64,000 nt of DNA from Kiritimatiellia bacterium (lineage in GTDB: Bacteria > Verrucomicrobiota > Kiritimatiellia > RFP12 > UBA1067). The notes beneath the pieces are model-generated. The model was not told where the DNA came from and ran no database searches. It was given only the letters and a program-made list of their open reading frames with translations. The position numbers and the translations under genes are program-made. Position 1 is the stretch's first letter. Each line of letters begins with the position of its first letter. The stretch spans positions 73,483-137,482 of the forward strand of contig JAFWKK010000042.1 of the NCBI GenBank assembly GCA_017514235.1, read 5' to 3'. Below are positions 28,835 to 64,000 of this stretch, one piece after another.

Positions 28835-28872
28835 TGAGGTATTCGGCTGCATACCCCACGGGCGCGGAGCGT
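28835..28872 (+). repeat. 38-nt conserved leader motif, copy 1 (identical to 45029-45066)
   Basis: TGAGGTATTCGGCTGCATACCCCACGGGCGCGGAGCGT, exact match to copy 2; contains the small hairpin GGTAT-TCGGCTGC-ATACC. Confidence 0.85.
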
Positions 28873-28874
28873 AT

Positions 28875-28932
28875 GCTTAGTTGGAGGTAGGAGTTGGAGT
28901 TGGAGGTAGGAGTTGGAGGTAGGAGTTGGAGG
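28875..28932 (+). repeat. purine-rich tandem array (unit about TTGGAGGTAGGAG, about 4 copies) upstream of four-helix-bundle gene 1
   Basis: direct repeats read from the sequence; roughly complementary to the array at 29305-29435. Confidence 0.85.
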
Positions 28933-29304
28933 ATGGAGGGGCAGGATTTTCAGTACAGGAATTTGATTGTGTGGCAAAAGGCCATGCGGTTCTCTAAAGC
29001 CGTTTATGCGCTGATCAATCAATTCCCCGTAGCAGAGAAGTATGCGCTTTCTGATCAGGTTCGTCGTGCGGCAGTGAGTGTTCCTAGCAACATTGCGGAA
29101 GGATGTGGACGCGCCTCAAATCGTGACTATGCTCATTTCCTGTCGATCGCACGTGGTTCATTGTATGAAACAATGACACAGCTGGAATTGGCACAATCGC
29201 TTGGATACATTGATGCTATCAAAGATATCGAAGAGTTGGCCTCGGAGATAAGTCGTATGCTAACAACATTGATGAAGAAATACACGCCGCTCTCCAAATC
29301 CTAA
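28933..29304 (+). CDS. four-helix-bundle protein (23S rRNA intervening-sequence protein / Avd-like family), copy 1
   Basis: IVWQKAMRFSKAVYALINQFP..EKYALSDQVRRAAVSVPSNIAEGCGRASNRDYAHFLSIARGSLYE..TQLELA is the hallmark of this family; the ORF track extends the start into the repeat array via TTG, and I prefer the ATG at 28933. Confidence 0.8.
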   Translation: MEGQDFQYRNLIVWQKAMRFSKAVYALINQFPVAEKYALSDQVRRAAVSVPSNIAEGCGRASNRDYAHFLSIARGSLYETMTQLELAQSLGYIDAIKDIEELASEISRMLTTLMKKYTPLSKS

Positions 29305-29435
29305 CTCTACCTCTCCCCTCCAACTCCACCTCTCCCCTCCAACTCCACCTCTCCCCTCCAACTCCACCTCTCCCCTCCAACTCCAACTCTCTCCTCCAAC
29401 TCCAACTCCAACTCTTTTCTCCAACTCATCTCCCC
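29305..29435 (+). repeat. pyrimidine-rich tandem array (unit about CTCCACCTCTCCCCTCCAA, about 4 copies, then CTCCAACTC variants) downstream of four-helix-bundle gene 1
   Basis: direct repeats; reverse-complement related to the upstream array (TTGGAGG versus CCTCCAA). Confidence 0.85.
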
Positions 29436-35129: not shown

Positions 35130-35130
35130 A

Positions 35131-35170
35131 ACTCACCCTCTCCCAACTCATAACTCACAACTTCCTCTCC
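35131..35170 (+). repeat. orphan pyrimidine-rich repeats (AACTCA-type) directly upstream of the wzx-2 start
   Basis: GAACTCACCCTCTCCCAACTCATAACTCACAACTTCCTCTCC-ATG. Confidence 0.45.
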
Positions 35171-42879: not shown

Positions 42880-42957
42880 TGTTTTGTTGTTATGCGCGGA
42901 CATCCGCTGATTGAGAGTTTGGTGTAAGAAGTTTGTAAGTTGGGGAGTGGGGAGTTT

Positions 42958-42974
42958 GAACCACGAAATACACT
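42958..42974 (+). repeat. 17-bp direct repeat TGAACCACGAAATACAC (copy 1; copy 2 at 43422-43438)
   Basis: exact duplicate flanking the GT2 pseudogene fragment. Confidence 0.7.
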
Positions 42975-43125
42975 AAATACACGAAAGAGAAAATCAACCC
43001 CTAGGATTATGTTGCACGGACATAATGTTTTTCGGCATAATATTCGATTCAAAGGCAGAAACGAAGATTAAACACCATTAAATTAATGGCGGTTAAATAA
43101 TGAGGTTTTTGAGTATTGCCGTTTT

Positions 43126-43412
43126 TTTCCATAATCATCCCGGTCTATAACGTCGCGCCCTATCTGCGCGAGTGCCTGAATTCCGTCTTGTCGCAGACGT
43201 TCGCCGATTGGGAGGCGATCTGCGTTGACGATGGTTCGACCAACGGGTTCTGGCTCGATTCTTGATGAATATGCTACATGTGACTGGTGATTCCGTGTCA
43301 TCCACCAGCTCAACGCCGGTGTTAGCGCGGACAGAAATGCCGGCATGTTAAATGCGGTTGGCGAATACATTACATTTCTGGACGGAGATGATGTGTATGA
43401 TCCGGGCGTCAG
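43126..43412 (+). pseudogene. GT2 glycosyltransferase remnant (5' module only, frameshifted, no start codon)
   Basis: nucleotide-level match to the GT2 5' module (PFFSIIIPVYNVAPYLRECLNSVLSQTFADWEAICVDDGST) then frameshift and stop; truncated at the second TGAACCACGAAATACAC repeat. Confidence 0.7.
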
Positions 43413-43421
43413 GGGTCGGTC

Positions 43422-43438
43422 TGAACCACGAAATACAC
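43422..43438 (+). repeat. 17-bp direct repeat TGAACCACGAAATACAC (copy 2)
   Basis: see copy 1. Confidence 0.7.
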
Positions 43439-43519
43439 GAAAAGGGGAAGATCGAGAGTTAGATAATGGCGTAAAATCAGCGATTGACAAGTCGGATTTC
43501 GTTGTGATATAACTCTTGT

Positions 43520-43590
43520 GCAATGAAAAATTGAGTGAGGTAATGAGTTAGTGGGGAAGGGAGGATTTGAGTGGTGGGGACTTCAAGTGG
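43520..43590 (+). repeat. orphan purine-rich repeat patch (TGAGTGAGGTAATGAGTTAGTGGGGAAGGGAGG...)
   Basis: reverse complement resembles the CT-rich repeats upstream of wzx-1. Confidence 0.35.
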
Positions 43591-45028: not shown

Positions 45029-45066
45029 TGAGGTATTCGGCTGCATACCCCACGGGCGCGGAGCGT
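45029..45066 (+). repeat. 38-nt conserved leader motif, copy 2
   Basis: exact match to 28835-28872. Confidence 0.85.
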
Positions 45067-45104
45067 CTTGTCAGTAGTCGGGGGTCAGGGGCCAGAGGAT
45101 AGAG
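45067..45104 (+). repeat. purine-rich short array (GGGGGTCAGGGGCCAGAGGATAGAGG) upstream of four-helix-bundle gene 2
   Basis: complementary in character to CCTGACTCC repeats downstream. Confidence 0.55.
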
Positions 45105-45461
45105 GTGGTTAAGACTTATAAAGAGTTAGTGGCTTGGCAAAAGGGGATGTCGCTTGTGAAAGCCGTCTATGCTTTAGTGAAACGGTTCCCAAAAGTTGAG
45201 CAATATCGACTTGTTGACCAGTTGACGCGTGCTGCAGTCAGTGTGCCATCTAACATTGCAGAGGGATTCGGTAGGGCTACCAACAAAGATTTCGCACACT
45301 TCCTGTCGCAGGCTCGAGGCTCGCTGTTTGAAGTAGAGACGCAGTTGTTGATAGCAAAGGATCTTGGATTTGTTGGTGATGTAACGTCAGAGCTTGAACT
45401 ATCTTCCGAACTTGGGAAGATCCTAAATGGTCTCATACGTAAACTACTCCCTGTCCCCTAA
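45105..45461 (+). CDS. four-helix-bundle protein (23S rRNA IVS protein / Avd-like family), copy 2
   Basis: LVAWQKGMSLVKAVYALVKRFPKVEQYRLVDQLTRAAVSVPSNIAEGFGRATNKDFAHFLSQARGSLFEVETQL; GTG start. Confidence 0.8.
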   Translation: MVKTYKELVAWQKGMSLVKAVYALVKRFPKVEQYRLVDQLTRAAVSVPSNIAEGFGRATNKDFAHFLSQARGSLFEVETQLLIAKDLGFVGDVTSELELSSELGKILNGLIRKLLPVP

Positions 45462-45497
45462 CTCCTGACTCCTGTCTCCTGACTCCTGCCCCCTAAA
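45462..45497 (+). repeat. pyrimidine-rich short array (CTCCTGACTCCTGTCTCCTGACTCCTGCCCC) downstream of four-helix-bundle gene 2 and directly before the GT2 start
   Basis: seen directly. Confidence 0.6.
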
Positions 45498-46535
45498 ATG
45501 CCTTTCTTCTCCATCATCATCCCGGTCTACAATGTCGCGCCCTATCTGCGCGAGTGCTTGGACTCTGTCTTGGCGCAGTCATTTGCAGATTGGGAAGCGA
45601 TCTGTGTCGATGACGGTTCGACTGATGATTCAGGCGCGATTCTAGATGAATATGCGGCGAAGGATCCGCGCTTTCATGTTATCCATCAGCAAAATGCAGG
45701 TGTCAGCGCCGCAAGAAACAAGGCGCTTGAAGTCGTTGCAGGGAAATGGTTTCTTTTTCTGGATGGTGATGATTTACTTTATAGCGATGCTCTGGAAGTT
45801 TTTATTCCATATATAAGATATGATGATGTTGATGGGATTCTTGTGCATCCATATACTTCTTCTTGGGATGGGAATGGTGTCCCACAACGAAATTGTGTTG
45901 TCGATGTTCTTGTGAAAGATGCTTCAAAGGAAGATTTATTCATAGGACCGTATGCGGCAAATGGTTTTTCATTTTCGCGTATTTATTCCACAAGAATATT
46001 TAGGCACTTACGTTTTAGGGAAGACATGTCCATGTCGGAAGATGTTTGTTTTTGGTTTGATGCTTTAAGCGTTACTGCGCGGTGGATGATATTGCGTGCG
46101 GAATATTATCTTTATCGTCAACGGGGCGATTCTGTGTGTGGGGAAAACGATCCACATAAATGCGGACAGATTCTGGAATCCGTTTTACATGCGCTTAATG
46201 TAATTGACAAACGGCTTGATGTTTCTAAATCTGCTGGAGCTAGATATTTGAGGCGTTTCCCGTCGTCTCCAAGATATTATATTGGTCTTGCCGTATGCAG
46301 ATATAAAGAACTTACTGATGAGGAATGGGATGATTTGTCGAATAAAGTAAAAGCCATTGATGCTATATGTGGGCGATGGTCATTGGGTGTTTTTGTCAAT
46401 TTATTAATGGCGTTTGCGGTAAATAGACGATTGCGTTTCGTGCTGCCAATATTGCTAAGAATGAGTAATTGCTATGATTGTCTGAGAATTCAAGTTGGTG
46501 GATTGTCACGAAAATTAGGTTTTATAAGAAGATGA
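45498..46535 (+). CDS. family 2 glycosyltransferase (conserved 5' module)
   Basis: FSIIIPVYNVAPYLRECLDSVLAQSFADWEAICVDDGSTDDS. Confidence 0.8.
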   Translation: MPFFSIIIPVYNVAPYLRECLDSVLAQSFADWEAICVDDGSTDDSGAILDEYAAKDPRFHVIHQQNAGVSAARNKALEVVAGKWFLFLDGDDLLYSDALEVFIPYIRYDDVDGILVHPYTSSWDGNGVPQRNCVVDVLVKDASKEDLFIGPYAANGFSFSRIYSTRIFRHLRFREDMSMSEDVCFWFDALSVTARWMILRAEYYLYRQRGDSVCGENDPHKCGQILESVLHALNVIDKRLDVSKSAGARYLRRFPSSPRYYIGLAVCRYKELTDEEWDDLSNKVKAIDAICGRWSLGVFVNLLMAFAVNRRLRFVLPILLRMSNCYDCLRIQVGGLSRKLGFIRR

Positions 46536-47275: not shown

Positions 47276-48343
47276 ATGAAGAGACTGTTGGAGATATCTG
47301 AATATGTTGAGGATGTGAAGCGTGTCGCATCTTTCGATTTGCCGTGGGAGAAACTACGTGATAAGACAATTCTCATAACGGGTGGCACGGGTCTTATCGG
47401 AAGCTTTTTGGTCGATGTGTTAAATGCTGCAAGACTTGATTGCAAGGTATTGTTATTTGGTCGGTCAGAAGAAAGGGCGAAAACTCGTTTCGCTGAATAC
47501 TGGGATAAGGGGTGGATTCATTTTGTGAAGTGGGATTCGAGTGAGGGGTTTGAGAGGTTTGACGAGTTTGAAGAGTTTGAGAAGTTCGATTATATGTTGC
47601 ACCTTGCCAGCAATACACATCCAGTGGCGTACGCAACGGATCCGATTGGCACGATAACGACGAATGTTATTGCGCTCAATAATCTGCTGGCGTTGGCGGC
47701 GGAGAAGTGTGCGACGAGGTTCTTGTTCGCATCTTCAAATGAAATTTACGGAGAGAATCGGGGGGATGTGGAGCTGTTTGATGAGAAGTACTGTGGTTAC
47801 ATAGATTGCAACACGTTGCGGGCAGGGTATCCAGAGTCAAAGCGTTGTGGCGAAGCATTATGTCAGGCGTACATAAGGCAAAAGAACTTGGATTGCGTCA
47901 TTGCGCGTTTGACTCGCACTTATGGACCAACGATTCTGTCGACTGACACCAAGGCCATTAGCCAGTTCTTCAACAACGCACTCAAAGACGAAGACATTGT
48001 CTTGAAGAGCGAAGGGAAGCAATATTATTCTTATCAATATGTTGTAGATTCGGTGTCGGGCCTCATGACTGTGTTGCTTAAGGGTGACTGCGGTGCTGCG
48101 TACAATATCGCCGATGAATCCAGCGACATTACGCTTCGCGATCTTGCCGCGTTGATCGCCAAGCAAGCTGGGCGCAAGGTTGTGTTTGATCTGCCTGATG
48201 CGGTTGAAGCTGCAGGTTTCAGCAAGGCTACAAAGGCTAGGCTGGATGGTGCTCGGTTGCGTGCGCTTGGCTGGTTGCCATCATATGACATTAAAAGCGG
48301 TGTGATGCGAAATTATTGTGTGCTTAAGAAATCTCGGGCATGA
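47276..48343 (+). CDS. NAD-dependent epimerase/dehydratase (extended SDR)
   Basis: ILITGGTGLIGSFLV Rossmann motif and a YxxxK region; about 355 aa. Confidence 0.75.
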   Translation: MKRLLEISEYVEDVKRVASFDLPWEKLRDKTILITGGTGLIGSFLVDVLNAARLDCKVLLFGRSEERAKTRFAEYWDKGWIHFVKWDSSEGFERFDEFEEFEKFDYMLHLASNTHPVAYATDPIGTITTNVIALNNLLALAAEKCATRFLFASSNEIYGENRGDVELFDEKYCGYIDCNTLRAGYPESKRCGEALCQAYIRQKNLDCVIARLTRTYGPTILSTDTKAISQFFNNALKDEDIVLKSEGKQYYSYQYVVDSVSGLMTVLLKGDCGAAYNIADESSDITLRDLAALIAKQAGRKVVFDLPDAVEAAGFSKATKARLDGARLRALGWLPSYDIKSGVMRNYCVLKKSRA

Positions 48344-59574: not shown

Positions 59575-60867
59575 ATGTTTCGTAGGGTAATTTATCAGGC
59601 AAAGTGGCGCTTGCATCATCCGACGGCGTTCGCACGGTTTGCCGATATTATGGCGAATCTCGAGAAGTCGTCTGGCCAGCTTGCTGCCGAACAGGAAGTG
59701 GCACGGCAGAGAATAGTTCGCCATGCGATGGCCCATACTGTTTTTTACAGGGAGAAATATACGGACGCGGGCTTTGGGTTGTCCGACATCGGCAGACAGG
59801 GGTGGTTCGAGAAGTTGCCGATAGTGACTAAGAATGACCTTCGCGAACGCTTCGCCGATTTCGTCGATACAGATCGGCGGCAGTTCTTGGCTGTCTCGAC
59901 TACCGGCGGTTCTACGGGTGTGCCCACCAAGACAGGCTACGACAGGCGCATTCCCGAAGAAGTTTATTCATGGCGGCTCCAGTCGTGCTACGGCGTCCAT
60001 CCTTGGGACGACCATGCATACGTGTGGCGGGATACGCGGCGTTCGAAGTGGGCGAAGTTGAAGAATGCCGCCGCATGGTGGCCGACGCGCCACCTGAAAC
60101 TCGATGCCACGTTGCTGAGCGACGCTGCGATGGATGAATTTATTGAGAAGTTCAATCGTCTGAAGCCTTGCCTGCTGCAGGGATATGTGGGCGCAGTTTC
60201 GCAGCTTGCGGAATATATGCTCAAGTCAGGCAAGGCCATTGCCTTGTCACCGAAAGTCGTATGGACCACCTCGGCCCCTCTGTCGGAAGTTCAGAGACGC
60301 CTGATTGAGACGGCTTTTGGCGCTCCGGTGTGCGATGAGTACGGTAGCTGCGAGTGCCGCTGGATAGCCTTTCAGCGGCCTGGGCATGAAGGATTGCGCG
60401 TCAATACGGAGCATGTGCATATAGAGTTTTTGCCAGACCAGGGCGGAGATGGGCATGGATATGGTCGGACGCTTTTGACCAATCTTGAAGATACGGTTTT
60501 TCCATTGATCCGCTACGAGAACGGCGACCGTGGCCGTTGGCTTGACTATCCCTACATTGATTCGGTAAAGGGACGGGAAGTGGAGTCGTTTGTCCTCACG
60601 TCGGGGAAAGTGGTCAACGGCGAATACCTCACAACGATCTTCGACGAGTCGCCGGATTTGGTGTATGGCTTTAGGGCCGTACAGCATGCGGATCTTAGCA
60701 TAACGATCGAGTACATTCCGGCGAAGGATGAGGGCAAGGTGCTGGAAGTCCTGCAGAAATTCGCGGACAAGATCGAAGGCGACGCCGTCGTTGACTTCAA
60801 ACGCGTCGACCAAATCTCGCATGACAGAGGCAAGCTTCGCTTTGTAGTGCGGGAAGTGAAAGGTTGA
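59575..60867 (+). CDS. CapK-like adenylate-forming enzyme (phenylacetate-CoA ligase / F390 synthetase family)
   Basis: length and motif pattern (STTGGSTGVPT adenylation motif, C-terminal region) of PaaK/CapK-like proteins in capsule loci. Confidence 0.6.
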   Translation: MFRRVIYQAKWRLHHPTAFARFADIMANLEKSSGQLAAEQEVARQRIVRHAMAHTVFYREKYTDAGFGLSDIGRQGWFEKLPIVTKNDLRERFADFVDTDRRQFLAVSTTGGSTGVPTKTGYDRRIPEEVYSWRLQSCYGVHPWDDHAYVWRDTRRSKWAKLKNAAAWWPTRHLKLDATLLSDAAMDEFIEKFNRLKPCLLQGYVGAVSQLAEYMLKSGKAIALSPKVVWTTSAPLSEVQRRLIETAFGAPVCDEYGSCECRWIAFQRPGHEGLRVNTEHVHIEFLPDQGGDGHGYGRTLLTNLEDTVFPLIRYENGDRGRWLDYPYIDSVKGREVESFVLTSGKVVNGEYLTTIFDESPDLVYGFRAVQHADLSITIEYIPAKDEGKVLEVLQKFADKIEGDAVVDFKRVDQISHDRGKLRFVVREVKG

Positions 60868-60931
60868 GAGGTTCGAGAGGTTTGGGCGGTTTGAGAAGTT
60901 CGAAAGTTCGAGAGTTTGAAAGTTTGAGAGT
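60868..60931 (+). repeat. purine-rich tandem array (GTTYGAGAG units) upstream of four-helix-bundle gene 3
   Basis: GTTGAGAGGTTCGAGAGGTTTGGGCGGTTTGAGAAGTTCGAAAGTTCGAGAGTTTGAAAGTTTGAGAGT; begins at the stop codon of the CapK-like gene. Confidence 0.8.
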
Positions 60932-61321
60932 ATGGCAACAATAAAACGATTCACCGATATCGTTGCGTGGCAAAAGAGCCGCGAGATGGTAAAGCGGATT
61001 TACGAGTTGACTCGGCGTGAGCCATTCTCCAGAGATTGGGGATTGAAGGATCAGATACAGCGAGCTTCAGTAAGCATATGCAGCAACATCGCTGAAGGAT
61101 TTGAACGGAGCGGGGACAAGGAGTTCGTGAATTTTCTCTGGATTGCAAAAGGATCAGTAGGGGAAGTAGCCTCCCAATTGTACAATGCAAAGGATTGCGG
61201 GTACGTTGATGAAGAAGACTTCATTTCGTTGCAAGAAGATCTGAAGTTGTTGAGTGCAATGCTTTATAGCTTAATTCGGTCAATGAAAACTTCATCCTTG
61301 AAAGGTGAGCGATATAAGTAA
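60932..61321 (+). CDS. four-helix-bundle protein (23S rRNA IVS protein / Avd-like family), copy 3
   Basis: IVAWQKSREMVKRIYELT...DQIQRASVSICSNIAEGFERSGDKEFVNFLWIAKGSVGEVASQL. Confidence 0.8.
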   Translation: MATIKRFTDIVAWQKSREMVKRIYELTRREPFSRDWGLKDQIQRASVSICSNIAEGFERSGDKEFVNFLWIAKGSVGEVASQLYNAKDCGYVDEEDFISLQEDLKLLSAMLYSLIRSMKTSSLKGERYK

Positions 61322-61457
61322 CCTTCAAACTTTCAAACTTTCAAACCTTCAAACTTTCAAACTTTCAAACCTTCAAACTCTCAAACTTTCAAACCTTCAA
61401 ACTCTCAAACTTTCAAACCTTTCGAACCTTCAAACCTCCCAAACTTTCCACCCTCCC
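61322..61457 (+). repeat. pyrimidine-rich tandem array (CTTTCAAAC/CTCTCAAAC units, about 14 copies) downstream of four-helix-bundle gene 3
   Basis: reverse-complement relationship to the upstream GTTTGAGAG array. Confidence 0.85.
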
Positions 61458-62921
61458 ATGTTCTCACACCTTTACGATCGCAAGTATCTTTTTAAATGCC
61501 TTTTGTCTATGGCGTTTCTTTTTGGCCTTATGAAGGCGACGGGCGGGTCGGGCTTTGTAATCGTTATCCCAATGGTTTTTTATGGATTGCTGTCCCGCAA
61601 GACGGAGTCGCTTTTCTTCTGGCTTCTGATGTCAGTATGTGCAATTATAGCTAATGGTTATGTGATCCCTAAAAATGCGGTGTTTGCCTGGTCGCAGCGT
61701 GGTCTGATGTTGAGTTTAGGTGTTTGTATGGCCTTGAATGTAATGGCATACCCTAAGCATGCCGTCATGAAACCATATCTTGGAATTATATTCTATATTG
61801 TATTTATGTTTTTCTCTTCTGCACAGGGGTGGTGCCCGCCTATTTCCTTCTTGAAGTTGATTTTGTTCACCGTTATTTATTTCTCTTATTTTGGGGTGGC
61901 GAATCAGGTTGGCATTAATCCAACTGTTTCGAGCAAACATGTGCGCAGTGTAATGCTAGCGGTCTCTCTCCTTTTTGTGGTAGGATCGATCTTGCTTGTT
62001 CCGTTCCCAGGCTTGTCGCAGATGAAGCATGACGACTTTGTTGACAGTCCTCTTGCAACAAGCCTTTTTATGGGAATGACCAACCATTCTCAGTGCCTTG
62101 GGCCGGTTGTATCGTCGATCTCAATTGTGGTCTTTGCTGATCTTCTATTTTCTGTTAGGAAATGGGATCCCCTTTATCTTTTCATCTTGTTTTGTTGCCC
62201 CTATCTTATCTACAAGACATCGAGTCGAACGGGCATGGGTGCCTATGTGCTTGGCATGATGTTTGTGGCGTATATTTTCATGCGTGCGCGGGGTGTAGGG
62301 TCGCGATGGAAATCGCGAGCCTTGACGACGGTAATGATATTTTCATGTGGATTGATTCTTGTTTTAGCATGTTTGCCAAGGGTCCAGAAATCGGCACTGC
62401 GATTTCTGTTGAAGACGACCAGCGAAAGCCCGTCTGCCGTAACAGCAGAAGCGGTGATGAGTACGCGGCAGGCACTTATCGACAGGTCACTTTACTATTT
62501 CCGAAAGAAACCTCTCTTGGGGAATGGTTTTCAAGTGTCGGAAGAGATGTCTAGCCTGAAGTTAAAGGGCGTTGCTTCTGTTTTGTCAGCTCCGATTGAG
62601 AAAGGCGTATGGGTTTCAGCAGTGTTGGAGGAAGGAGGCATCATAGGATGGTTGCTTTTTGTTTGGTTTCTTGTGGTCTGTATCATCACGTCAATCAAGC
62701 GACGAGCCTATATTGGAGCGTCATGCCTTTTTCTGAGCATGCTTACAAATCTTGGAGAATTCACGTTCTTCTCTATGTCATACACTGGTGGTTTCACATG
62801 GGCGATGGTTTTTGTAGGCCTTGCGCTTGACATTAGGAAAATGAAGGATGAGAATGCGGCCATCCAGCGTGAAATGATGATGCGTGAGATGCGAATGCAG
62901 CAAGGAGGGGTCGGCAGGTGA
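61458..62921 (+). CDS. O-antigen polymerase/ligase-like (Wzy/WaaL-type) membrane protein
   Basis: about 10-12 TM helices and a large periplasmic loop; start taken at the ATG after the repeat array, since the ORF track begins inside the repeats. Confidence 0.55.
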   Translation: MFSHLYDRKYLFKCLLSMAFLFGLMKATGGSGFVIVIPMVFYGLLSRKTESLFFWLLMSVCAIIANGYVIPKNAVFAWSQRGLMLSLGVCMALNVMAYPKHAVMKPYLGIIFYIVFMFFSSAQGWCPPISFLKLILFTVIYFSYFGVANQVGINPTVSSKHVRSVMLAVSLLFVVGSILLVPFPGLSQMKHDDFVDSPLATSLFMGMTNHSQCLGPVVSSISIVVFADLLFSVRKWDPLYLFILFCCPYLIYKTSSRTGMGAYVLGMMFVAYIFMRARGVGSRWKSRALTTVMIFSCGLILVLACLPRVQKSALRFLLKTTSESPSAVTAEAVMSTRQALIDRSLYYFRKKPLLGNGFQVSEEMSSLKLKGVASVLSAPIEKGVWVSAVLEEGGIIGWLLFVWFLVVCIITSIKRRAYIGASCLFLSMLTNLGEFTFFSMSYTGGFTWAMVFVGLALDIRKMKDENAAIQREMMMREMRMQQGGVGR

Positions 62922-64000
62922 AGGTCCTGCACGTCATCTCATCTATTCATCGTTCGTCCGGCGGGCCGTCAAGGTCGGTTCAGGGACTGGCGGCCGCAGA
63001 GTGCCGCGCAGGCGTAGATGCCGGAATCTTCACGTTCCGGCATGGCGACAAGCCGTGGGTGGACGGCATTTCGTTCGTTCATTCAGGGGTGGAGATAGAT
63101 TCTGAACTGCTGGAGTTCAAGCCAGACATTGTGCATCTGCACGGACTGTGGAATCGCAGGCTTCATCGTGCTGCGGTCGCTTGCCGAAAGTTGGGGGTTC
63201 CGTATGTCATTGCGCCGCGAGGGATGCTTGAGCCGTGGAGCCTGAAGCAGAAGTGGCTCAAGAAACGGATTGCTCGATTCCTTTACCAGGATAGGGATCT
63301 GCGGTGCGCCGCAGCGCTCCATGCCACGGCAGAGAGCGAAGCGGAGCAGTTTAGGCGCATGGGGTTCAAGAATCCAGTAATCATCAGCCCCAATGGCGTC
63401 AATCCTCCCAACCTCCCACCCACTCTCCCACTCCAACTCAAACCTCCAACTCAAAATCTCCAACTCCAACTAAAAACTCCAACTAACACTAACCTCCAAC
63501 TCCCACTCAAAACTCCAACTCAAACCCTCCAACTCCAACTCAAGACTCCAACTAATACTAAAAGAACCTTGTTCGTGAGCCGGATGCATCCGAAGAAGGG
63601 TGTGATGGAGCTGGTCGAGGCCTGGGGAAGTTTAGTGGCTAGTGCTGAGTGGTTGGTGCGGAACGGTTGGAAGTGTGAGTTGGTGTATACGGTTAGCGGG
63701 GAACTTGAGAAGGGGTATGAGGCGAAGGTAAAGGCGAGGGTTAAGGAGCTGGGGCTGGAGGATAAGTTCATATTTACCGGCGCGCTGAATGACGACGAGA
63801 AGTGGGAGGCGTATGCGAGAGCGGACCTGTTCGTGCTGCCGACCTACAGCGAGAACTTTGGAATAGTGGTTGCCGAGGCGCTTTATGCCGGCGTGCCGGT
63901 AATCACCACAAAGGGCACTCCCTGGCAGGAACTGGAGACCGAGAGTTGCGGTTGGTGGATTGACGTTGGAGAGGATGCGTTGGCTGATGCTTTGACAAAG
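62918..64000 (+). CDS. family 4 glycosyltransferase, 3'-partial, with in-frame repeat insertion
   Basis: GTG start overlapping the upstream stop (GTGA); KVLHVISSIHRSSGGPSRSV...; C-terminal GT4 motifs EXFG (YSENFGIVVAEALYAGVPVI); runs off the window end, so it is absent from the ORF track. Confidence 0.75.
   Translation, partial: MKVLHVISSIHRSSGGPSRSVQGLAAAECRAGVDAGIFTFRHGDKPWVDGISFVHSGVEIDSELLEFKPDIVHLHGLWNRRLHRAAVACRKLGVPYVIAPRGMLEPWSLKQKWLKKRIARFLYQDRDLRCAAALHATAESEAEQFRRMGFKNPVIISPNGVNPPNLPPTLPLQLKPPTQNLQLQLKTPTNTNLQLPLKTPTQTLQLQLKTPTNTKRTLFVSRMHPKKGVMELVEAWGSLVASAEWLVRNGWKCELVYTVSGELEKGYEAKVKARVKELGLEDKFIFTGALNDDEKWEAYARADLFVLPTYSENFGIVVAEALYAGVPVITTKGTPWQELETESCGWWIDVGEDALADALTK
63404..63575 (+). 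repeat. pyrimidine-rich CTCCAACTC-type tandem array embedded in-frame in the GT4 gene
   Basis: translates in the GT4 frame as NLPPTLPLQLKPPTQNLQLQLKTPTNTNLQLPLKTPTQTLQLQLKTPTNTK without stops, between the ISPNGVN and KRTLFVSRMHPKKG domain-boundary motifs. Confidence 0.8.

Follow-up and report, generated by a model that had tools for sequence, protein, structure and literature searches.

A PF05635 gene cassette bracketed by complementary tandem arrays between two polysaccharide genes of a Kiritimatiellia bacterium

The small proteins of the PF05635/TIGR02436 family form a very large and very diverse group without known function, for which a single phmmer search retrieved representatives of 19,550 clusters at 50% identity. 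The only context in which they have been studied is the intervening sequence (IVS) of 23S ribosomal RNA (rRNA), the origin and purpose of which have been open since about 1990 (PMC4990558). In Coxiella, the IVS harbors a homologous open reading frame (ORF) with tandem heptamers ahead of its start codon, the copy number of which is variable among strains (PMC4990558). In vitro, RNase III cleaves its 28-bp terminal stem where the first heptamer begins, and the ORF seems to be untranslated and decaying (PMC4990558). PF05635 proteins are also homologous to Avd, the accessory protein of diversity-generating retroelements (PMC10053308). Here we analyze a PF05635 gene in a 64,000-nucleotide stretch of a contig from a Kiritimatiellia bacterium (JAFWKK010000042.1, positions 73,483 to 137,482), referred to as the window, to which all coordinates refer. 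The gene lies between the genes of a CapK-like ligase and a Wzy-like polymerase and, together with the arrays of short repeats on both of its sides, is termed element 3, as two similar elements precede it in the window. Element 3 is almost certainly an array-bracketed PF05635 cassette that was inserted at the CapK/Wzy junction, and this cassette has very probably been gained and lost in evolution.

The CapK-like stop codon (TGA, 60865-60867) and the Wzy-like ATG are separated by 590 nucleotides (nt), which consist of a G-rich array, the ORF and a C-rich array (Table 1). The 129-aa product of the ORF matched PF05635 (E = 1.4e-36, 125.3 bits, cut-off 33.8) and TIGR02436 (124 bits, cut-off 24), both well above the respective cut-offs. 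Its nearest solved structure is 2GSC (E = 1.6e-17) and 2RLD is also homologous; the similarity covers residues 9-120, and the protein is predicted to fold as a four-helix bundle. Tandem Repeats Finder (TRF) resolved the upstream array into two overlapping stretches, 60861-60914 with a period of 9 (6.2 copies) and 60889-60931 with a period of 8 (5.2 copies). This array begins at the CapK-like stop, because the TGA sits within its first unit, GGTTGAGAG, and it finishes 1 nt ahead of the ATG of the ORF. The downstream array (61320-61448, period 8, 15.9 copies, 81% matches) also shows a higher-order unit of 24 nt (4.8 copies, 94% matches). Its start overlaps the stop codon of the ORF, and its degenerate tail reaches 61457 and adjoins the Wzy-like ATG. 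The 136 nt from 61322 to 61457 contain 50 C and a single G. The 3' arm is twice as long as the 5' arm, and CTTTCAAAC is commoner in it than CTCTCAAAC. The motif GTTTGARAG occurs 11 times in the window compared to 1.16 expected copies, a number that was reached in none of 100 shuffled sequences.

Most of the preliminary description of this locus was borne out by these results. It had proposed an IVS-like four-helix-bundle gene between arrays, in agreement with the family matches, the enclosing stem described below and the tandem repeats beside the start codon, and had correctly placed the upstream array at the CapK-like stop and the end of the downstream array at the Wzy-like start. The downstream array is indeed the reverse complement of the upstream one, whereas its size had been given as about 14 units and about 16 were counted. 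The repeat unit of 9 nt has to be corrected as well, as the true period is 8 and the 9-mers overlap by one base. An N-terminal extension of the Wzy-like protein encoded by the array (MSDISNLQTFKLSNLQ..., from a GTG at 61305) is an artefact of ORF calling. In six of seven loci compared, including the window, the Wzy-like N-terminus is MFSxLYDRKY, read from the ATG. For the remaining locus, L091, the gene call begins at a later ATG, and its DNA contains the same ATG and first codons. Similar artefacts were observed elsewhere: gene callers run PF05635 ORFs or their neighbours through the arrays, which results in proline- or leucine-rich tails and proteins of 160-250 aa (e.g. L094 9333-9833 and many of the phmmer hits).

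Table 1. Coordinates of element 3, its host genes and related features in the window
Feature	Position	Strand	Characteristics and basis
CapK-like gene, upstream host gene	59575..60867	+	Adenylate-forming ligase family; homologs with PF27533 CapK_C
Element 3, 5' arm	60861..60931	+	G-rich, ~8.5 units GTTYGARAG, 28 G and 4 C, 71 nt; TRF, inverted-repeat search, base composition
Element 3, putative four-helix-bundle gene	60932..61321	+	PF05635/TIGR02436, 129 aa, in loop of predicted stem; family models
Element 3, 3' arm	61320..61457	+	C-rich, period 8, ~16 units CTTTCAAA / CCTTCAAA / CTCTCAAA and degenerate tail; TRF, fold, composition
Wzy-like polymerase gene, downstream host gene	61458..62921	+	PF04932 (weak match); true start is ATG 61458
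Sister element 1	28879..29426	+	5' arm GGAGTTGGAGGTA 28879-28932; ORF from ATG 28933 to 29304; 3' arm CTCCAACTCC... 29290-29426
Sister element 2	45070..45497	+	5' arm GTCAGTAGTCGGGGGTCAGGGG.. 45070-45104 (short); ORF from GTG 45105 to 45461; 3' arm CCTGACT 45447-45497
Solo C-rich array, CTCCAACTCAAA type	63425..63553	+	In frame within inter-domain linker of GT4 glycosyltransferase (LQLQLKTPT...), no partner arm
Solo array GGTTTGAGA x5	47542..47586	+	Unit family of element 3; in frame within NAD-dependent epimerase gene (FERFDEFEEFEKFD)
Leader motif TGAGGTATTCGGCTGCATACCCCACGGGCGCGGAGCG(T), first copy	28836..28872	+	37-38 nt, identical to second copy; directly 5' of element 1
Leader motif, second copy	45030..45066	+	Directly 5' of element 2

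The arms of element 3, which are about 390 nt or more apart, are complementary over 47 nt at 83% and over 55 nt at 73%. The preliminary description had named RNA structure prediction as a check, and the fold of 60850-61470 indeed contained the enclosing stem, with a predicted length of about 70 bp around the ORF. The folding energy was -205.7 kcal/mol compared to -161.7 +/- 6.1 kcal/mol for shuffled sequences (z = -7.3). Nearly all long inverted repeats (up to 3 kb apart) that were detected in the 64 kb, including the longest, enclose elements 1 and 3. Nine metagenome contigs harbor a locus identical to that of the window. Three of them (L086-L088) stop within the downstream array of element 3 and six span all or nearly all of it; in two of these six the array is 48 nt shorter, corresponding to two 24-nt units, which may be due to assembly collapse.

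Element 3 thus resembles the ORF-bearing 23S rRNA IVSs of Leptospira and Coxiella ('S23p'), which also harbor a PF05635 ORF in the loop of a terminal-inverted-repeat stem, tandem short repeats right before the start codon (GACAGAT heptamers in Coxiella) and a sporadic distribution. Copy-number variation is a further potential parallel between the Coxiella strains and the 48-nt difference among our contigs, given that the latter may reflect collapse. Differences are evident as well. The host of element 3 is a protein-coding operon with CapK-like and Wzy-like flanks instead of an rRNA gene, and its arms are long arrays on both sides (71 and ~136 nt) instead of a 28-bp stem. No rRNA or any other Rfam family was detected in the whole window at gathering thresholds. 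The protein resembles Avd in belonging to a superfamily of small four-helix bundles, of which the solved relatives 2GSC and 2RLD comprise five chains each (PMC10053308). In contrast to Avd systems, the neighbouring genes do not encode a reverse transcriptase, template/variable repeats are missing, and the element 3 protein does not match the Avd-specific model.

Syntenic loci, reached via CapK-like homologs with 74-88% identity, were compared at the CapK/Wzy junction and at a second junction between genes for a major facilitator superfamily (MFS) protein and a phosphoenolpyruvate (PEP) mutase (Table 2). Presence or absence of the cassette was found to differ among relatives at both junctions. 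This supports the view of a discrete insertion between polysaccharide genes, and orthologous loci do not universally contain the element, as the CapK/Wzy junction is empty in L090, L096 and L097. The ancestral state was probably empty and the cassette was probably gained within this locus family, because the relatives that are furthest from the window lack it. The five closer loci are nearly equidistant from the window (81-88% identity for CapK, 75-80% for Wzy). The two occupied loci are not mutual closest relatives, and therefore a single gain, loss or transfer does not suffice. The cassettes are precisely delimited: one to four codons at the end of the upstream gene are rewritten (the CapK-like protein ends in REVKG in the window and in REVND in the empty locus L090) and the 3' arm stops at the next start codon. 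The empty spacers hold short pyrimidine-rich mini-arrays just ahead of the Wzy ATG, which match 16 of 18 bases of an array double unit in L090 and consist of GTCTTTCGT x3 in L094 and TAATTCCA x2.5 in L096. They may be footprints of former cassettes. The L090 match could also point to arms derived from the target sequence; nothing comparable occurs at the MFS/PEP-mutase junction.

Table 2. Occupancy of two gene junctions in the window and in syntenic loci
Locus	CapK identity	CapK/Wzy junction	MFS/PEP-mutase junction
Window	100%	PF05635 cassette	Genes absent
L090	88%	Empty, 45-nt gap	Not comparable
L091	85%	PF05635 cassette, GTTTGAGAG/CTCTCAAAC unit family as in window	PF05635 cassette
L092	84%	Unrelated 189-aa ORF	Empty, 15-nt gap
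L094	81%	No cassette, promoter-like spacer of 155 nt	PF05635 cassette
L096	76%	Empty, 51-nt gap	Not covered
L097	74%	Empty, 3-nt gap	Not comparable

The window and L091, both occupied at the CapK/Wzy junction, share 75-95% DNA identity in the flanks and only 47-68% in the ORF, with sharp edges at the arms. Likewise, the proportion of synonymous differences (pS) amounts to 0.90 (saturated) in the ORF compared to 0.56-0.67 in the flanks. This island of divergence fits either a replaced cassette or one that was acquired independently at a re-used site, with a faster local rate as the alternative. The ratio of nonsynonymous to synonymous differences (pN/pS) of the ORF is about 0.34, and the element 3 ORF is still under coding constraint.

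A scan of one genome per species yielded at least 580 confirmed relatives, the best 80 loci of which were examined. They belong to Bacteroidota, Planctomycetota, Verrucomicrobiota, Acidobacteriota, Bacillota, Nitrospirota, Thermodesulfobacteriota, Gemmatimonadota and other phyla. Tandem arrays were found in 124 of 160 flanks compared to 95 of 480 control windows, and arrays of at least three copies in 64 flanks compared to 18 control windows. The period was 7 in 83 and 8 in 19 of the 124 arrays. Where arrays occurred on both sides (49 loci), the upstream unit was the reverse complement of the downstream unit in 28 cases, whereas this applied to only 2.1% of cross-locus pairs; these 49 loci harbor 47 distinct array units. 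Comparison of pairing energies across loci is misleading, as the G-rich and C-rich flanks of different loci pair as well, and hence shuffles of each locus and a score for ungapped helices were used. Flank pairing had a z below -3 in 35 of 77 loci, and an ungapped helix score of at least 18 was reached by 43 of 80 loci compared to 0 of 240 shuffled and 5 of 240 cross-locus pairs. Element 3 belongs to the top tenth of the 80 loci with a score of 32. Pair counts from RNAduplex did not separate observed from shuffled flanks (medians of 85 and 81). The G-rich arm is the 5' arm in 71 of 80 loci (p = 4e-13), a polarity that is a property of the hairpin and independent of the direction of the ORF. The array-bracketed design is the norm for the PF05635 family across phyla.

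The PF05635 gene has the same orientation as both neighbours in 59 of 73 loci, and the median gaps to them measure 70 and 51 nt. The neighbours of 76 cassettes represent 141-159 Pfam families, including the flavoprotein and iron-sulfur subunit families of succinate dehydrogenase type (sdhA/sdhB), methylmalonyl-CoA mutase, rfbB/rfbA, fatty-acid oxidation genes, SufB, gyrase and many others. A polysaccharide-specific role was considered and rejected, as sugar-nucleotide genes adjoin only about 4 of the 76 cassettes.

The arms are exchanged rapidly while their complementarity is retained. Where related species share an occupied junction, their cassettes have arms of unrelated sequence that are self-complementary in each case. 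In two Capnocytophaga species (L039 and L045), the flanks are 96-98% identical and the four-helix-bundle proteins 69% identical, and the arms differ. Three Flavobacterium loci (L051, L055 and L078) share a junction and have differing arms that still pair. The cassettes of L091 and L094 have outer ends in common, with arms of GGTTTCT:AGAAACC and GGGTTTC:CGAAACC, respectively. This fast yet complementary turnover suggests that pairing is under selection, or that one arm serves as a template for the other in some copying process.

Several other classes of repeats occupy similar positions. REP/BIME (repetitive extragenic palindromic sequences and bacterial interspersed mosaic elements) and ERIC (enterobacterial repetitive intergenic consensus) of enterobacteria are ORF-less hairpin inserts in transcribed spacers, which follow one consensus per genome and vary among strains. 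The PF05635 cassettes share with them the location between co-directional genes and the variable presence, but each cassette carries a gene and an arm sequence of its own, which sets them apart from this class. They also differ from insertion sequences (ISs) and miniature inverted-repeat transposable elements (MITEs), as the three copies of the window have unrelated arms and nearly every locus of the survey has its own unit. The cyanobacterial STRR (short tandemly repeated repetitive) sequences are short tandem heptamer arrays. In Beggiatoaceae, TAACTGA heptamer arrays are located in intergenic leaders and often end about a base before the start codon (PMC4679880). Period 7 also dominates around PF05635 genes, and solo arrays occur in leaders of the relatives of this genome. 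Unlike the cassette arrays, however, the STRR and TAACTGA families each have one unit genome-wide and are direct repeats without a partner arm. The publications examined on heptamer arrays of Beggiatoaceae, Xanthomonas and Nostoc make no mention of the PF05635 family. In one part of a large clustering study, '23S rRNA IVP' is listed among the domains linked to CRISPR arrays (PMC10910872); flanking repeat arrays might have been mistaken for CRISPR arrays in this case.

The observations are best explained by an IVS-like cassette in an operon mRNA, the arms of which would pair and, by analogy to the rRNA systems, probably be cut by RNase III. We assign this explanation as a whole a probability of about 0.55. 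The genes around element 3 are located on one strand and serve polysaccharide synthesis, and neither a sigma-70-like promoter nor an intrinsic terminator was matched inside the element. Because it is co-directional and has no such match of its own, element 3 is probably transcribed within the operon mRNA. The cassette takes the place of the short CapK/Wzy spacer in this operon. In the transcript, the G-rich 5' arm and the C-rich 3' arm would form a long imperfect duplex with the ORF in its loop. Such a duplex may be a substrate of RNase III, as suggested by the homologous 23S rRNA IVS, and we lean slightly towards arms that act as an RNase III-processed RNA stem. The cut would set the cassette RNA free and divide the operon message at the CapK/Wzy junction. 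As its presence and absence show, the cassette has since been lost, replaced or transferred among close relatives. More tentatively, an unpaired 3' arm would look like a loading site for Rho, and a G-rich arm that is transcribed first would avoid early exposure of such a site. It is similarly tentative that translation of the ORF may be limited to the time before the 3' arm is transcribed, because the start codon is located at the foot of the stem.

Several findings weigh against this explanation. Neither a transposase nor an integrase or reverse transcriptase was found beside the three copies of the window, and no target-site duplication was seen when occupied and empty junctions were compared. 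The element 3 ORF is under purifying selection, whereas that of Coxiella seems to be decaying and untranslated. The minus strand of element 3 folds equally well (z = -6.7). Across the survey, G:U and A:C transition mismatches within the helices are balanced (97 vs 80, p = 0.23), and the energy test favors the sense strand only weakly (25 vs 13 loci, p = 0.03). Hence there is no visible adjustment of the complementarity to the sense RNA, and it could be kept at the DNA level; copying between the arms at this level, and not selection on one transcript, might maintain it. Furthermore, in housekeeping operons the pS of the ORF tracks that of the flanks (0.55 vs 0.39-0.51, with similar values for other pairs), and these cassettes look like vertically inherited long-term residents rather than frequent movers. 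The mobility proposed in the preliminary description therefore holds on an evolutionary scale only.

A serious alternative, albeit an unlikely one, is a device that serves the host, in which the stem processes or insulates the polycistronic mRNA and the four-helix-bundle protein is an RNA-binding helper. In another version of this idea, the stem masks the G-free, C-rich 3' arm from Rho or sets the expression of the downstream gene. Such a device would share its RNA mechanism with an IVS-like cassette and differ from it in who benefits. The divergence of same-junction cassettes in step with their flanks in related genera is in favor of a host function, as is the moderately relaxed protein constraint on the ORFs in housekeeping operons, which are under purifying selection (pN/pS 0.2-0.35). 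The same applies to arm complementarity that is kept while the arm sequence is replaced, to the 3' arm of element 3, with 50 C and a single G over 136 nt and double the 5' arm in length, and to the genes following C-rich arms, which lack a purine-rich ribosome-binding region. A host device is contradicted by presence and absence among close relatives at two junctions, by neighbours so extremely diverse that no common regulated pathway can be assumed, and by arms that offer no conserved sequence for a regulator to recognize.

A mobile element acting at the DNA level, either MITE- or IS-like or dependent on a hairpin, appears quite improbable. The arrays would represent its ends, the enzyme would be encoded elsewhere and the gene would be cargo or a cofactor. 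Gain and loss with junction precision, complementarity that is symmetric between strands and the footprint-like solo arrays in the empty sites of L090, L094 and L096 would be in line with such an element. However, the arm sequence differs from copy to copy, even among those of a single genome, which misfits a sequence-specific transposase, and neither a target-site duplication nor a shared terminal motif was seen. A transposase is also missing near the three copies, although an enzyme could act in trans. Finally, an arm spacing of about 390 nt or more is a poor geometry for a DNA cruciform.

Still less probable is a contingency locus, in which slippage of the array would alter the length of the stem or leader and thereby switch the expression of the Wzy-like polymerase. 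The downstream array that is shorter by 48 nt in two of six contigs of otherwise identical sequence, and an in-frame array of variable length in homologs of a GT4 glycosyltransferase encoded downstream, would fit this scenario, but the 48-nt difference may be a collapse of repeats in short-read assembly, as three contigs break in the array, and the same architecture occurs in housekeeping operons (sdhA/sdhB and rfbB/rfbA), for which phase variation is unlikely. Membership in a diversity-generating retroelement with the protein as Avd is effectively refuted at this locus, since the homology to Avd (PMC10053308) goes along with only weak matches of elements 1 and 2 to Avd models (20-26 bits for NF033474 with a cut-off of 80) and none of element 3, and the genes flanking all three copies of the window encode glycosyltransferases, a ligase, a polymerase, an ATPase, a helix-turn-helix protein and a glycoside hydrolase, but no reverse transcriptase.

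The protein family and the rRNA IVS were already known. The openly accessible literature yielded no account of PF05635 genes that are framed by inverted arrays outside rRNA, and a prior description is possible. If operon junctions are the normal habitat of these cassettes, the rRNA IVS becomes one case of a general element, and IVS biology becomes accessible in ordinary operons of cultivable Capnocytophaga, Flavobacterium and Sphingobacterium, all of which were present in our survey. Many operons would then hold a long double-stranded RNA stem, with consequences for mRNA processing, polarity and downstream expression, and annotation artefacts such as arrays read as protein extensions or contigs breaking at arrays would be explained. 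The fast turnover of complementary arms provides a clean natural system for the co-evolution of inverted repeats. A far broader version, which we consider distinctly unlikely, would regard PF05635 array cassettes as a pan-bacterial class of autonomous IVSs that colonize any transcribed operon junction. The 23S rRNA IVS would be a special case of this class, the ORF-less arrays in 5' leaders and even in frame within genes of the same genomes, maybe also the heptamer arrays of cyanobacteria and Beggiatoaceae, would be relics or non-autonomous derivatives, and the Avd-like protein would make, maintain or move the arrays, for instance together with a cellular reverse transcriptase or RNase III.

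Within the window, tblastn detected three PF05635 genes (28933-29304, 45105-45461 and 60932-61321) with mutual identities of 33-53%. None of the three proteins matched the anti-phage defence models of PADLOC. All three elements consist of a G-rich 5' arm and a complementary C-rich 3' arm around the gene, and their units differ: GGAGTTGGAGGTA in element 1, GTCAGGGG/CCTGACT in element 2 and GTTTGAGAG in element 3. The RNA fold of element 1 is significant as well (z = -5.7). In element 2, the 3' arm extends up to the ATG (45498) with which a GT2 gene begins. The prediction for this element contains a terminal stem of about 30 bp, but the z of the whole region is just -1.3. Among the flanking genes of element 3, the CapK-like ORF was called with 439 aa, and its real start is a later ATG that gives a form of 430 aa. 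The G+C content is 64.3% in the backbone (window positions 1-28000) compared to 47.5% in the polysaccharide region (29900-64000), which is consistent with a horizontally exchanged, hypervariable polysaccharide locus.

Arrays also occur in the window without a PF05635 gene. The C-rich array in the GT4 linker (Table 1) comprises 0 to about 57 residues in close homologs, and pairing of this array with a downstream G-rich stretch as a hairpin was rejected as not significant (z = -1.3). Some GT4 homologs harbor a second in-frame insert (TETQRHRGTEE...SEPLSLCDSVLKE) that resembles a translated hairpin repeat. Further solo arrays are located at 35130-35170, 42910-42990, 43410-43445 and 43530-43590. 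The first is C-rich and abuts the ATG of a flippase-like gene (35171), and the spacer at 42.9-43.6 kb contains G-rich and CACGAAATA-type solo arrays. Positions 43120-43400 in this spacer duplicate the 5' part of the GT2 gene starting at 45498 in degraded form, which suggests a past rearrangement. In two related polysaccharide loci (L090 7060-7880 and L081 9100-10500), small PDDEXK_3 (PF13366) genes lie between direct repeats of 60-200 nt, in which CACGAAATA/TTTCGTG arrays occur, and the L090 copy has an array hairpin upstream. These genes represent another type of small-gene cassette, the repeats of which are arranged differently.

A leader motif directly 5' of elements 1 and 2 (Table 1) occurs in two exact copies in the window compared to 0 expected, the second of which lies about 45 nt downstream of a TGnTATAAT-like box. 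Rfam gave no match around the motif at E values up to 1, and a structured RNA was rejected as its fold is not significant (z = -1.2). It is probably not a part of the cassette either, since a PF05635 gene follows in only 2 of 116 instances. In several loci with the motif (L108, L123, L127, L134, L135 and L157), solo G-rich heptamer arrays (TAGTGGC, TAGTTGT and GAATAGT) without a complementary partner or a PF05635 gene are located just 3' of the motif, in the 5' leaders of unrelated genes. Beyond the window, 80 metagenome contigs contain 142 instances of the 23-nt core of the motif, several of them on the same contig. The 5' edge of the motif is sharp, and the median distance to the start of the next gene downstream is 43 nt. 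The motif thus looks like an abundant, undescribed 5'-leader element of this bacterial group.

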